Assembly: GCA_028909515.1 (NCBI GenBank) | Contig: GCA_028909515.1_4811.1 | Origin: a phage | DNA length: 64,000 nt | Strand: one strand, 5' to 3' | Shown: piece by piece, positions 25,359 to 29,365 of the stretch | Position numbering within the stretch: position 1 is the first letter of the stretch | Layout of the letters: each line of letters begins with the position of its first letter | Made by a program: the position numbers and the translations under genes | Notes under the pieces: model-generated | What the model was told of the DNA's origin: nothing | Database searches by the model: none | What the model saw: only the letters and a program-made list of their open reading frames with translations

Positions 25359-26070
25359 TGGGTGTTGGTTATTTAACCGTGAATCGTGGGTCGTGAATCT
25401 TGGGTCGCTTAGTGCGGCCCTTTCTTTTGCCTGCCGTGCAGGAGTGTACTGCAAATTTACTGTGGGTACAAAATAGTACGGTACTGTCTAGGATTTTTTC
25501 TTTGAAAAGTTAGTGGACCAAATGTGTCGTATTTTGATTAGTGTACTACAAATTTCATCAAGTACCAAAACGCACCAAAAGACCCATGCCATAAAAACCA
25601 CACGAACGCAATAATCAATCGCCGTTACAGTTTCCAGCGTTACAATTCGAAAGCGAATGATTCGAAGCATAATAATATGAAGCATAATGATTCGAAAGCG
25701 AATGATTGCGTGTAGGATAATATCGGTGGGGATTATTCTAGATGCATGTAATTTCGCATGCGTACTATTTTCGGACGAAGGGTCGGCATATTCCTCGTTT
25801 TAGTTCGGAACGAAGGGAAAGTTTTGCGCCTTTATAAAACAACGACTTACGCGACCCTCCCTAACGGTCCGATATAGGTGTCTATATAAAACAACGACTT
25901 ACGCGATGTTCTCCATTTAACGTAATACCCGTTATGCGAACTAAGGCGCATCTCGGCGAAGATTATGCGACGACGAAGGGAAGGATAAAGGAGTTTTCGC
26001 GGAGAAGCGCATCGGGATAGGGACGAAGAAAAGCCGCGACTAAGCGCGGCCTATTAGTAACGGAAGGGTA
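25359..26070. repeat. repeat-dense non-coding region between convergent genes
   Basis: Two copies of ATAAAACAACGACTTACGCGA; GTGAATC(G/T)TGGGTCG twice; GTGTACT(G/A)CAAATTT twice; permuted repeats of CGAAAGCGAATGATT and GAAGCATAAT; about five ACGAAGGG-type copies. Confidence 0.6.
26015..26040 (-). terminator. rho-independent terminator of 26071..26361
   Basis: Minus-strand hairpin GCCGCG...CGCGGC followed by TTTTCTTC. Confidence 0.55.
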
Positions 26071-26361
26071 TTATAAGGAGACGATTTTAAAATAAGTTAC
26101 TTCGCCGCCAAGTTGCGGGACCGCGATATATTCGCCGCCGATTTCGGTAATCGTATAGACGAAGCCGTTGATGGTTACGCGGTAGGATACTACGTCCTCG
26201 TCGCGATACTTGTAAAGGTCGAGGAAGTTGATCGGCTCATAAATAGACTCGATAGTCGCGTCTACGTTAGAGAGATAAACGCTCTCTAAGGTTTCGCCAA
26301 ATACGTTAGAGTTTTCGGAAGTCTCGACGCGAGCGGAACGGATAGCGGATAAAGTAATCAT
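26071..26361 (-). CDS. small acidic protein, paralog family (copy A)
   Basis: 96 aa, Glu/Asp-rich; own promoter, AGGAG RBS and terminator; similar to 26995..27279 ('SIR.A.VE...NVD.TIE...NG..Y...EIG'). Confidence 0.6.
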   Translation of the reverse strand: MITLSAIRSARVETSENSNVFGETLESVYLSNVDATIESIYEPINFLDLYKYRDEDVVSYRVTINGFVYTITEIGGEYIAVPQLGGEVTYFKIVSL

Positions 26362-26427
26362 AATATTCTCCTAGTTAGTCGGGAGGGTAGCGACCTATTC
26401 GCTACCTCATCCCCTCTCGATATAAAC

Positions 26428-26456
26428 ATTATAGTCTTAGTGTACGAATAAGTAAA
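26428..26456 (-). promoter_or_regulatory. sigma70-like promoter for acidic paralog A
   Basis: Minus-strand TTTACT-N17-TATAAT with internal TACACT. Confidence 0.55.
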
Positions 26457-26466
26457 GCACTTTTCG

Positions 26467-26769
26467 TTATTCTGCGATAAAATATTTATAAGCTTTATCG
26501 CCTTCTATATCGAGATACTCGACGATAATTAACGCTTCGCCGCGCGGCGTAACGGTTTCGATGAGGGTTACGGTTTCGTCGTCGGCCCGAATGAAGCGGA
26601 TGGCGCTACGTTCGGCGTACTTAATCTCGTCGAAGGAAAGGCCGACGAAGGCGACCGCGCGGACTTTAATTCCGCTCCACTCTAGTTCCGCGTTAACGGC
26701 TTTAAGAAGAGAAGCGACGGTTAAGCGGTCTTCGTCGTAAGTAAGAAGAGAAGAAATTAAAGTAGCCAT
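26467..26769 (-). CDS. small acidic protein, paralog family (copy B)
   Basis: Start at 'MATLISS' behind GGGAG RBS; acidic; same promoter architecture as copies A and C. Confidence 0.55.
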   Translation of the reverse strand: MATLISSLLTYDEDRLTVASLLKAVNAELEWSGIKVRAVAFVGLSFDEIKYAERSAIRFIRADDETVTLIETVTPRGEALIIVEYLDIEGDKAYKYFIAE

Positions 26770-26825
26770 AATAAAACTCCCGATGCTAGTAGAAGGAAGG
26801 GCCATCACCCGTCTCGATATAAACA

Positions 26826-26854
26826 AGTATACGCGAGTGTACGAAGAAGTAAAG
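26826..26854 (-). promoter_or_regulatory. sigma70-like promoter for acidic paralog B
   Basis: Minus-strand TTTACT-N16-TATACT with internal TACACT. Confidence 0.55.
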
Positions 26855-26898
26855 AAAAAAAGATAAAATAATTTATCTCATTTTTATCGAAAAAGTGC

Positions 26899-26926
26899 TT
26901 TACTTTTTTCTACACTATATTATAAT
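26899..26926 (+). promoter_or_regulatory. sigma70-like promoter for acidic paralog C (divergent from B)
   Basis: GTGCTTTACTT-N-TACACT-N-TATAAT; -35 TTTACT, 16-bp spacer. Confidence 0.55.
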
Positions 26927-26994
26927 GTACTCATATCGGGACGGGATGAGTTAACGAATAGGTCGTTAACGCCTCTCCCAACTAGGAGTTTAAA

Positions 26995-27279
26995 ATGGCT
27001 ATTCTTAACGTTTCTTCTATTCGCAACGCTATCGTCGAGAACTACGGCGTAAAACAAATTTTATCCGAAGTCTACGCCGCGAACGTAGACCAAACTATCG
27101 AGGCGGGTGGGGTAACGGTCGCCGAGGCTTTTAAACTTTACGCGGCGCTACCGGAATCGGACCGCGAAGCCTTCGAAGTAAACGTTAACGGATACTTCTT
27201 CGAAGCGGTCGAAATCGGTAACATCTTACTCGTTATGGGCGAAGAAGAATTTGAGACCTTCTCCCTCGTCGAAGCGTAA
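26995..27279 (+). CDS. small acidic protein, paralog family (copy C)
   Basis: 94 aa, about 14 Glu versus 4 basic residues; AGGAG RBS; promoter TTTACT-N16-TATAAT upstream. Confidence 0.6.
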   Translation: MAILNVSSIRNAIVENYGVKQILSEVYAANVDQTIEAGGVTVAEAFKLYAALPESDREAFEVNVNGYFFEAVEIGNILLVMGEEEFETFSLVEA

Positions 27280-27359
27280 GAGAGGATTTTTAGAGCGTCG
27301 TGCGCGGCGCTTTAATAAAATTCTTTCGCGCCTAGCGCCCTAACAAATAGGAGTTTATT

Positions 27360-27986
27360 ATGGTTAGCTTAAATCGTTTCTCGACTAGCGGCGACGTTAT
27401 CGCAACTAAGACCGCCGACCTCGTTGCATTTTATAATGCAAATTCCGGTTCGAAGCCGATTAAGAAATTTGCGGACCGCCGGACCGCCGAGACTCGCGTA
27501 ATCGCGTTAATCGAGTCCTTAAACGCGCTCGATGAGCCGTCCAACGAATCGCCCATTCCCGACGCGAAGCCGCGCGAGGAAGTGTCCAGCGATGTAAAAA
27601 CGCATAAGGCGCGCGCGGTCGTTAAAAAGGCCGAGCCGACCCAGGAAGAACTCGACGCGATGAGCGATGAAGAGTATGAAGCCTTCGTTAAGAGCGGCTT
27701 AAACGATAGTGCGAATTGCGTAGTGCAAAATGGAACTCCTTCCCATCGCCGTTCGAATAGCGAAGGTATTGCAAAAAGTTGGGATAATAAGGAAGTGGCG
27801 CAAAAGCGTCTTACTCGTAACGGTGTTATGGTCGAGGGTGTAGGCGAGTTCAAATCGGTCCGCGTAGCGTTCGCCGCGCTGGGCTTACCGGATAGCAAGC
27901 ATATTCGCTTCCGCATGAAGCTTAAAGAAGCTGGACGCTTAAACTTCGAGTTCGGCAACAAGTCCTACACCTTCCAGATTATCTAA
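27360..27986 (+). CDS. hypothetical protein
   Basis: 208 aa; AGGAG RBS; CpG-rich, CTG-poor codon usage like the adjacent paralogs; hairpin terminator follows. Confidence 0.55.
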   Translation: MVSLNRFSTSGDVIATKTADLVAFYNANSGSKPIKKFADRRTAETRVIALIESLNALDEPSNESPIPDAKPREEVSSDVKTHKARAVVKKAEPTQEELDAMSDEEYEAFVKSGLNDSANCVVQNGTPSHRRSNSEGIAKSWDNKEVAQKRLTRNGVMVEGVGEFKSVRVAFAALGLPDSKHIRFRMKLKEAGRLNFEFGNKSYTFQII

Positions 27987-27992
27987 TCGAAT

Positions 27993-28014
27993 GGCGGCCC
28001 TTCGGGGTCGCTTT
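27993..28014 (+). terminator. rho-independent terminator after 27360..27986
   Basis: GCGGCCC-ttcg-GGGTCGC (one G-U pair) followed by TTTT. Confidence 0.5.
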
Positions 28015-28036
28015 TCATAGTGCAAATTGGTGGATT

Positions 28037-28300
28037 ATGAATACTCTTATTCTCATCGCTACGTTGTCCATCGGAAGTGGTCGCACCTTATCCCTTTATG
28101 ACCATAGTGCAAATTGCGCTTACCCTACGCGCGTTGCGGCGATAGTTAATAGTGCAAATAAGATGCTATTCGAGACTTGCTGGCGGGTCGATAACGAGAA
28201 AGGTCGGGTAGTCTTAGGTTATAGTGCAAATCTGCTGGTGGAGTCGTTCGATTGGACGGCTGAAGGTCGTAAATTGTTACGTAAAGTGACTAAAAGATGA
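28037..28300 (+). CDS. hypothetical protein with in-frame 'SAN' repeats (doubtful)
   Basis: 87-aa ORF carrying three in-frame copies of ATAGTGCAAAT, with further copies flanking it; may be a DNA-level repeat array, not a gene. Confidence 0.3.
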   Translation: MNTLILIATLSIGSGRTLSLYDHSANCAYPTRVAAIVNSANKMLFETCWRVDNEKGRVVLGYSANLLVESFDWTAEGRKLLRKVTKR

Positions 28301-28345
28301 CTTATAATAATACACTTTCTAACGCGTTTATGGTTGCAACCTTCC

Positions 28346-28402
28346 CCGTCGTATTACCGACGGCCCTAGAAGTGGAGAAAATGTGTTCTAGGGCCGTTTT
28401 AT
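28346..28402 (+). terminator. tandem-hairpin terminator
   Basis: CCGTCG-tattac-CGACGG, then CGGCCCTAGAA-N14-TTCTAGGGCCG followed by TTTTAT. Confidence 0.45.
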
Positions 28403-28414
28403 AGTGCAAATTGG

Positions 28415-28888
28415 CTAGTGGCGGGAGAATTGCTCGCCTTCTTTGGCCGCCTCTCCAAAATCCTTGTAGAAATCGTCCATAGAACGGCCCATTTTACTAT
28501 TGCCGTTTTCATCAATCATCGTGATGCCGTAGATGATATTCAGTTCACGAATAGCATTAAGCTTGGCTGACGCCGCGACTTCTGGATCACGCACAAGCTT
28601 GACCAAATTGTGAATTGCACCTTTTACGCTCCACAAATCCTTGAGTGGCATCTCTTCCATACGCTTTTTGAAGCGCATTTTGTAGTATGGGTTGCGTTGC
28701 GCGCAAAGGATTCGCTGGCCAGTGTAGTTATCCGTTGCAACTTCCATTCCAAATACTAGTGCAAAAGCTGCGCGCATGTCATGGCCCTGAATAACAAGGT
28801 CAATGAACTCATCGAATAAAGCCTGATTGTGCTCTGCAAATCGCGGGTCTTCAAAGTCTTCAGGCATCGCTACATAATCTTGACTCAT
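28415..28888 (-). CDS. hypothetical protein
   Basis: Start set at 'MSQDYVAM'; three ATAGTGCAAAT-type copies lie at or just upstream of the start. Confidence 0.5.
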   Translation of the reverse strand: MSQDYVAMPEDFEDPRFAEHNQALFDEFIDLVIQGHDMRAAFALVFGMEVATDNYTGQRILCAQRNPYYKMRFKKRMEEMPLKDLWSVKGAIHNLVKLVRDPEVAASAKLNAIRELNIIYGITMIDENGNSKMGRSMDDFYKDFGEAAKEGEQFSRH

Positions 28889-29029
28889 AGTGCAAAATCC
28901 CATAGTGCAAATTAATAGTGTGAATTATACAATGGATGGACATTATATTCAAGTGCAGATTGATGTTCATTATGGCTATAAACGTACACAAATCATAGTG
29001 CTGATAGAGTTGCGGACCGTGGTGCGTGG

Positions 29030-29365
29030 TGTACTGTTTGATACGTATAAAAGAAATCCATCCCTTTCGCCGCTTGCTATGCAAATCAATGACTTAGCCG
29101 CTGCTGGCTGGTTGAAGCGTATCATGACGTATCATCCGTATTGCCGCAAGTCTTTGTTTTTACTTATATCTTACGGATGATACGTATAAATATAAGTTTA
29201 GTATAAGTATGAGGATGTAGAAAAAAATTAATTTAAATTAATTCAAAATGGAGTTAATTAATTTTCTGGAATTCTATATATATTATGTTTGCACCCGTAT
29301 CATCCGTATCAGCGTATTTTTCCTTATAAATCAATAGCCCAATGATACGTCATGATACGTATGAA
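29030..29365. repeat. iteron-flanked AT-rich element, copy 2
   Basis: TACGGATGATACG-type iterons at about 29117-29140 (inverted), 29171-29187, 29294-29314 (inverted), 29342-29362 around an AT-rich core sharing 'AAAAAAATTAATTTAAATTAATT' and 'GAATTCTATATA' with copy 1. Confidence 0.7.

Follow-up and report, generated by a model that had tools for sequence, protein, structure and literature searches.

A terminal-repeat module of small acidic genes with host-type promoters, a candidate early host-takeover or anti-defence locus of wifceviruses

The takeover module that Bacillus phage SPO1 carries in its terminal redundancy and the pre-early region in the terminal repeat of phage T5 share one plan: long direct terminal repeats hold many small genes of unknown fold, each with a strong host-type promoter and ribosome-binding site (RBS), which are expressed first and are directed at the host. 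In T7 the terminal repeat is ~160 bp long and non-coding. Here we analyse three short genes, referred to as A, B and C, at positions 26071 to 27279 of a 64,000-nucleotide stretch of phage DNA (contig GCA_028909515.1_4811.1 of GenBank assembly GCA_028909515.1, hereafter the window), which lie within a long direct terminal repeat (DTR). Our results indicate that this region is probably an immediate-early module of small acidic proteins aimed at the host, acting in takeover or in anti-defence. A preliminary description, drawn from the bare sequence, had proposed a triad of paralogous DNA mimics that might form an expanded anti-restriction or host-takeover family. The broad part of that proposal, an early role in host takeover or anti-defence, gained support in the present analysis; the three-member DNA-mimic family did not.

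The window derives from a Wifcevirus, an E. coli myovirus with a genome of ~68 kb. The 2.9 kb around A, B and C matched 29 phage records at 90-96% identity, all of them Wifcevirus-type E. coli or Shigella myoviruses of ~68 kb, and every gene under the match is annotated as 'hypothetical protein' in the related records. Both ends of the record of phage WFC share an exact 3,784-bp repeat, which maps to window positions 25497..~29240. This agrees with the 3,673-bp DTR annotated from PhageTerm in phage Mansfield (PMC6753283) and with the ~3.7 kb given by Korf et al. (PMC6563267). Since the WFC end repeat maps to 25497..~29240, A, B and C lie wholly within a DTR of ~3.8 kb (25497..29250), together with a 208-amino-acid (aa) protein gene, an 87-aa protein gene and, by the Mansfield annotation, the small-terminase gene (~8 genes in all). 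Each virion DNA should therefore contain the module twice, at either end, and the module would be on the first DNA to enter the cell, whichever end leads.

Each of the three genes is preceded by a predicted promoter of one family. Within the 64 kb of the window there are exactly three copies of CTTTACTT-N5-TACACT, and each stands in front of one of the three genes; a shuffle control gave 0.37 matches with up to two mismatches allowed. P_A (26421..26464, minus strand) consists of an A-tract, a TTTACT -35 box, a 17-nt spacer containing TACACT and a TATAAT -10 box, with a predicted +1 at 26421 (AUCGAGAGGGG). P_B (26818..26860, minus strand) has the same -35 box, a 16-nt spacer with TACACT and a TATACT -10 box, with a predicted +1 near 26818 (AUCGAGACGGG), and P_C (26891..26935, plus strand) combines an A-tract, TTTACT, a 16-nt spacer with TACACT and TATAAT, with a predicted +1 at 26933-26935 (AUAUCGGGACGGG). 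An A-tract lies directly upstream of each -35 box. P_A and P_C match the sigma-70 consensus at 10/12 positions and P_B at 9/12. The longer pattern proposed earlier, CTTTACTT-N5-TACACT-N4/5-TATAAT, is recognisable at all three sites and exact for A and C; P_B departs from it in its TATACT -10 box and in lacking GTG upstream of the -35 box. At the RNA level the predicted transcripts would begin with AUCGAGAGGGG (A), AUCGAGACGGG (B) and AU(AU)CGGGACGGG (C).

As had been noted, RBS motifs are present (AGGAG for A and C, GGGAG for B) and the layout is partly divergent: B and A are read leftward and C rightward from back-to-back promoters. Downstream of A lies an intrinsic terminator (26031..26052, minus strand), whose 8-bp stem has 6 G-C pairs and a T run behind it; the annotations of Mansfield and WFC place a terminator at this site too. 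Between B and A none was seen, and transcription from P_B therefore probably extends through A. P_A is 99-100% identical in WFC and in phage Ro157lw, and an exact scan of viral contigs for the promoter pattern returned multi-copy matches only in wifcevirus contigs, plus scattered single matches. Host sigma-70 promoters are also in use in the related Pbunavirus 14-1, where some of them are very strong in E. coli and a second, phage-specific motif occurs as well (PMC10914365).

All three open reading frames (ORFs) were found where they had been placed. Gene A (26071..26361, minus strand) encodes 96 aa with a net charge of -8 and an isoelectric point (pI) of 4.2; gene B (26467..26769, minus strand) encodes 100 aa with a net charge of -7 and a pI of 4.6; gene C (26995..27279, plus strand) encodes 94 aa with a net charge of -12 and a pI of 4.05. 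The MATLISS start chosen for B, an ATG, proved correct, the ORF itself starting at this ATG in two relatives (L002 and L008). The longer, TTG-started version of B begins at 26826; since this is the last base of the predicted P_B -10 box, the TTG would lie upstream of the predicted transcript start.

Six related genomes keep these frames unbroken, and the ratios of nonsynonymous to synonymous substitution rates (dN/dS) of A, B and C are 0-0.49. Gene A was found in 29/29 of the wifcevirus records matched (dN/dS 0-0.49), and B has 20 homologues at 72-96% identity, all on wifcevirus-sized contigs (dN/dS 0.26-0.36). Both are present in every wifcevirus examined, and C alone behaves as a truly optional cassette. 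In divergent pairs, dN/dS reaches 0.26-0.49 for A and B, compared with 0.01-0.15 for the neighbouring 208-aa and 87-aa genes. All three are thus coding genes that are under purifying selection and evolve faster than their neighbours; dN/dS and conservation rule out spurious or chance ORFs.

The description of these proteins as highly acidic was right in its residue count for C (14 Glu, 2 Asp, 2 Lys and 2 Arg) and overstated in its adverb. Asp and Glu together (D+E) make up 15% of A, 18% of B and 17% of C, and net charges run from -7 to -12. When the ~99 ORFs of the window are ranked by negative charge per residue C comes first and A fifth, and 22% of ORFs have a pI below 5.

The three-way paralogy claimed for these genes held for one pair. 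Two-sequence BLASTP aligned A with C at 33% identity over 82 columns (E 5e-7), and the two share the motifs reported before: IR.A.VE, NVD.TIE, (I/V)NG and EIG. No relation of B to either could be detected. BLASTP of B against A and C gave no alignment at E <= 100, profile-profile comparison with hhalign gave probabilities of 0.2% (shallow profiles) and 0.1% (deeper profiles), and hidden Markov model (HMM) iteration over 2,147 small ORFs never joined the A/C family to the B family. A 104-aa allele from WFC, tried as a bridge between B and A/C, failed. By sequence homology B falls outside the A/C family, whose motifs include (I/V)NG..[FY]; B and A are alike only in that low-confidence AlphaFold models arrange their predicted secondary structure in one order (predicted local distance difference test, pLDDT, 52 and 46). 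We conclude that A, as founding member, and C, as its paralogue in a variable slot, form one fast-diverging family, and that B belongs to a second family, which accompanies A in a distant relative (contig L003, below). As the A and C proteins are only 33% identical behind nearly the same promoters, the duplication must be old and the promoters constrained.

Comparison between wifceviruses located the variation in the ORF bodies. Against WFC, the promoters, leaders, spacers and neighbouring genes of the window are 94-99% identical; identity falls to 63% in codons 25-96 of A, to 50% in the C slot and to 87% in B, which scores ~87% against Mansfield and Ro157lw as well. From one phage subgroup to another, promoters and leaders keep 96-100% identity, and the ORF bodies stand out as islands of divergence. 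The C slot occurs in three states. It holds C itself in 12 GenBank records and a diverged 104-aa allele ending in EDDEE in 11 records; in the third state it is empty, with a precise absence in Ro157lw, where P_C with its leader is joined immediately to the 208-aa gene. Phage vB_Eco4M-7 likewise has no gene in the slot, the hairpin-bearing leader continuing straight into the 208-aa gene. Carriers of C include Bas99 and Bas100, carriers of the 104-aa allele include Bas98 and Bas101, and ECML-117 also lacks C.

The 104-aa allele aligns with C end to end at 29% identity. It joins the A family transitively only, through a 94-aa protein of contig L015 (E 1.5e-3) that leads to an A-family member of contig L030 (E 2.6e-4); its direct hhalign comparison with the A-family profile gave a probability of 21.6% over 42 residues. 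Two C-less phages, Ro157lw and vB_Eco4M-7, have an extra 69-aa gene just downstream of A (L008, 2078..2287, minus strand; L069, 3074..3283, plus strand), which is absent from the window; the Ro157lw protein matches phrog_10377, 'transcriptional regulator', at E 5e-37.

Relatives were also sought outside the genus. Word-indexed searches of 5.8 billion proteins returned wifcevirus copies only; P0040 (103 aa, E 3e-11) was the single true relative gained when 1.84 billion representatives were searched exhaustively with a profile. Giant repeat proteins from the same search were set aside as motif-level matches, not homologues, because P0043, the one inspected, matches only through a VTVNGSTYTAT-type motif. 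P0040 lies on the metagenomic contig L003 in the same neighbourhood as in the window: a gene resembling that of the small terminase subunit (TerS) is followed by 87-like and 208-like genes, from which an A-like gene, with a 125-aa homologue of B after it (30% identity, E 2e-7), is read divergently. Serratia phage WR01 (Myosmarvirus) carries two A-like genes, of 101 and 114 aa, directly after its 208-like gene, and the Serratia-type contig L030 and the enterobacterial-type contig L015 hold further members or analogues. Every family member examined is acidic, with net charges of -7 to -21 and D+E of up to 25% (23-25% in relatives). Since acidity is retained in all members although their identity to the window proteins is at most 36%, it appears to be selected in both families.

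Conservation of the promoter reaches much further than that of the proteins. In L003 the promoter before the A-like gene, CTTTACTTCTTCGTACACT-N4-TATACT, is almost identical to the P_B of the window, and conservation is nearly base for base although the proteins are only 30-36% identical. ATCG followed by purines at the predicted +1 is invariant in seven aligned promoters, including those of L003, WR01 and L015. The first 2,200 bp of L015, a 73-kb viral contig, contain four cassettes with a promoter of the same type (GCTTTACT-N17-TATAAT, followed by TTATCGAAACGA or ATATCGGAAGGGG), whose cargo is an 88-aa and a 94-aa acidic protein, a 66-aa protein and the 208-like gene. Because L015 has four such cassettes, the cassette design appears to be common to the enterobacterial PB1-like group, with differing cargo.

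The leaders of A and C contain a hairpin: GGUAGCGAAUAGGUCGCUACC in the A leader (26386..26406, minus strand; fold -21.3 kcal/mol, z -2.7) and GUUAACGAAUAGGUCGUUAAC in the C leader (26950..26970, plus strand), the latter supported by folding and covariation. The apical CGAAUAGGUCG is invariant, and the lower stem covaries between the A, C and Serratia copies, with 5/8 pairs changed on both sides and 97% of cells paired (controls were far lower); as only three lineages contribute, few independent events stand behind this covariation. Further copies lie at ~3949..3971 of contig L005 and ~895..917 of L030. The hairpin is found before A-family genes and, in C-less phages, before the 208-aa gene; the B leader has none, and no Rfam family matched the leaders or the hairpin. 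It might stabilise the mRNA or serve as an operator of translation.

Taken together, the DTR location and sigma-70-type promoters, the islands of divergence, the states of the C slot, the retained acidity and the published resistance of these phages to restriction-modification (RM) favour an early, host-directed module. It would comprise three self-contained cassettes, each supplying one small acidic protein and each laid out as an A-tract, a CTTTACT -35 box, a spacer with TACACT, a TATAAT -10 box, a AUCGAGAGGG-type start at +1, a structured leader (A and C only), a strong RBS and the ORF. Host sigma-70 RNA polymerase would read these cassettes before any phage protein exists. Their products would then target components of the host early in infection, to shut down one of its functions or to block a defence, and would presumably bind through a negatively charged surface. 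A constant regulatory shell around coding bodies that are swapped or diverge is what would be expected of arms-race genes.

Several observations weigh on the other side. Promoter activity and early timing are predicted from consensus matches. The proteins showed no homology to any characterised protein, and the AlphaFold models (pLDDT 52 and 46) give no binding surface or partner. A is found in every wifcevirus matched and A-like genes occur in a second genus, which would fit a conserved phage-internal role equally well; pairwise dN/dS stays below 1; and a link between the published defence resistance and A, B or C is conjectural. A search of the literature found no paper giving these genes a function and no Wifcevirus transcriptome. 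We therefore regard A, B and C as good candidates, still unproven, for proteins that act early in host takeover or in anti-defence.

Wifceviruses are reported to resist the tested RM systems without a known mechanism of genome protection, with the exception of EcoP1_I, to which they are sensitive, and very short latent periods have been reported for them (PMC11990801). The four wifceviruses of that defence panel each carry C or the 104-aa allele, and the panel contains no C-less phage. Avoidance of restriction sites as the cause of the resistance was rejected for EcoRI and EcoKI, for which the window contains 19 and 5 sites. Over the whole window, the numbers of EcoRI, EcoKI and EcoP1I sites come close to those expected; GATC falls far below its expected number (96 observed, 255 +/- 13 expected under a first-order model) and CAGCAG is enriched (68 versus 35).

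To the right of C, in line with P_C, lie the 208-aa gene (27360..27986, plus strand; phrog_4730, function unknown) and the 87-aa gene (28037..28300, plus strand). The 208-aa protein is the conserved anchor of the region: it is kept in 59 viral loci with a dN/dS of 0.01-0.09, and in the Pbunavirus-sized genomes among these 59 contigs only its C-terminal 75 residues are kept, with an LPDSKHIRFR motif. Mass spectrometry of vB_Eco4M-7 phage preparations detected its homologue (gp19) and did not detect those of A (gp21) and B (gp20) (PMC7048862), a weak indication that neither A nor B is a component of the virion.

Repeats occur in the right half of the DTR and at its left edge. With one mismatch allowed, ATAGTGCAAAT is present nine times at 27433..28912 in the right half, always on the plus strand; 2.06 copies would be expected over the entire window. 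The copies are spread over the 208-aa, 87-aa and TerS-like genes and the gaps that separate them. A packaging or regulatory protein might bind to them, or they might be a promoter element specific to the phage. The left edge, 25497..26030 (~530 bp), is without a convincing gene. It contains four tandem units with a 15-bp period (25636..25723), a 25-nt direct repeat (at 25830 and 25882) and a weak promoter-like site (25692..25721); ATATCGGTGGGG, which follows that site, is similar to the +1 box. In L015 the corresponding position is taken by a comparable stretch rich in repeats.

Could these genes account for the resistance directly? In the most specific form of this idea, A, C (with the 104-aa allele) and B are unrecognised families of immediate-early inhibitors, for example with a new nucleic-acid-mimic fold, which explain the insensitivity of wifceviruses to RM and other tested defences and whose synthesis is controlled by the leader hairpin (CGAAUAGGUCG) and the T7-A1-like start. 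So specific a combination seems unlikely to us.

The idea put forward at the outset, that A, B and C are Ocr/ArdA-type DNA mimics whose acidic surfaces stand in for the DNA backbone and titrate restriction enzymes of type I, perhaps others too, or BREX as the DNA enters, draws its support from charge and context, and we judge it improbable. Its appeal is clear: the proteins are small, acidic and apparently early, and they come first behind strong host-type promoters, as does T7 gene 0.3 (ocr) after A1-A3; the predicted A transcript begins with the same 10 nt as that of T7 A1; acidity is conserved, reaching 23-25% D+E in relatives; and the restriction resistance of wifceviruses is unexplained and does not come from site avoidance. 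Searches with the proteins gave it no support. Scans of A, B and C against Pfam (including the Ocr and ArdA models), PHROGs, PADLOC and NCBIfam found no match (in Pfam at E <= 1, none for A and B and chance-level hits only for C), and eight relatives scanned against Pfam and PHROGs gave none. Profile searches of all Protein Data Bank (PDB) chain sequences, which are expected to include the solved DNA mimics, returned nothing significant at E <= 10. By sequence, none of the three belongs to the Ocr family (PF08684) or resembles the solved Ocr chain. ArdA is a three-domain protein of ~165 aa; the window proteins, at 94-100 aa, had no Pfam match to its family (PF07275).

The charge of the proteins does not point to Ocr either. 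D+E of 15-18% falls short of the extreme acidity of that protein (~29% D+E), an all-helical dimer which inhibits type I RM and BREX and whose surface carries an array of carboxylates imitating bent B-form DNA. AlphaFold2 was run on A and B, structure prediction having been suggested at the outset, and yielded models too poor to use and no usable surface (A, pLDDT 52 from 12 sequences; B, pLDDT 46 from 16 sequences). At this low confidence both show three helices followed by the four strands of a sheet, not the all-helical fold of Ocr, and Foldseek with the A model found no PDB match below E 0.49. Finally, because the published resistance covers RM systems in general, a mimic directed at type I enzymes would explain it poorly, and the phages are still sensitive to EcoP1_I. 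With B unrelated by sequence to A and C, no match to a known anti-restriction or DNA-mimic protein and an acidity well below that of Ocr, the proposed triad was not supported.

A role in the phage's own programme is another explanation that we consider doubtful. The proteins would then regulate transcription or translation in the early-to-middle switch, or act as accessory factors in replication or genome-end processing. The universal presence of A in wifceviruses, the A-like genes of Myosmarvirus and L003, the nearby TerS-like gene, the nine same-strand ATAGTGCAAAT repeats, the tandem repeats at the DTR edge and a conserved leader hairpin that could be an operator for autoregulation would all suit such a role. 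Core phage functions, however, are rarely islands of divergence, and here one paralogue is lost or swapped; the conservation expected of a core function is seen in the 208-aa neighbour and not in A, B or C, and acidic proteins with very few basic residues are poor direct binders of nucleic acid. That the genes are merely recent duplicates or chance ORFs without separate functions is very improbable indeed, for although a promoter and leader were evidently duplicated and C is dispensable in some natural isolates, the frames are intact with more synonymous than nonsynonymous change per site across isolates (dN/dS 0-0.49), the 33% identity of A and C behind nearly the same promoters indicates an old duplication, and the families persist in other genera.

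If, as we favour, the region is an early host-directed module, it is of practical interest, since wifceviruses are candidate biocontrol phages against E. coli O157. It is the most obvious place to look for early functions behind their resistance: three short genes with well-defined promoters, for which natural allele and deletion variants already exist in sequenced, cultured phages. Should one of the proteins block a defence, it would define a new inhibitor family; should they shut off a host process, this could help to explain fast takeover. The shell of promoter, start sequence and hairpin, compact and conserved as it is, could also find use as an expression unit in phage engineering.

How does the locus compare with described systems? 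Like the class I region of T7 (A1, A2, A3 and gene 0.3/Ocr), it has predicted strong promoters for host RNA polymerase near a genome end with a small acidic protein first, and the 10 nt with which the A1 transcript begins (T7 record L070, position 119) recur unchanged at the predicted +1 of P_A, as ATCGAGAGGG. We regard this identity as a striking parallel between strong early promoters and as no evidence about the proteins. Those of the window have no sequence relation to Ocr, are less acidic and are predicted, at low confidence, to contain helices and strands where Ocr is all-helical; moreover, the window promoters are divergent, one per cassette, whereas those of T7 stand in tandem before one operon, and the window genes lie inside a 3.8-kb repeat. 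Set against Ocr (PF08684) and ArdA (PF07275) as families, the proteins are similarly small, acidic and plausibly first expressed, in a phage group that resists restriction. They differ in having no Pfam or PDB sequence match, an acidic fraction about half that of Ocr and a length unlike that of ArdA.

Accessory hot spots of anti-defence genes offer another parallel, with a conserved regulatory and flanking frame, interchangeable fast-diverging small ORFs and presence or absence among near-identical genomes; in the window, by contrast, A and B are kept in every wifcevirus examined and only C is optional. The locus also resembles SPO1 and T5, in that the genes sit inside a long direct terminal repeat, each with what appears from its sequence to be its own strong host-type promoter and RBS. 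The window repeat is smaller, 3.8 kb with ~8 genes as against roughly 10-13 kb, there is no sequence homology, and early expression and host shut-off are here predictions. The protein families of this locus are unannotated and without known relatives; terminal-repeat early effector genes with strong host promoters are of a familiar kind, known from T5, SPO1 and T7.

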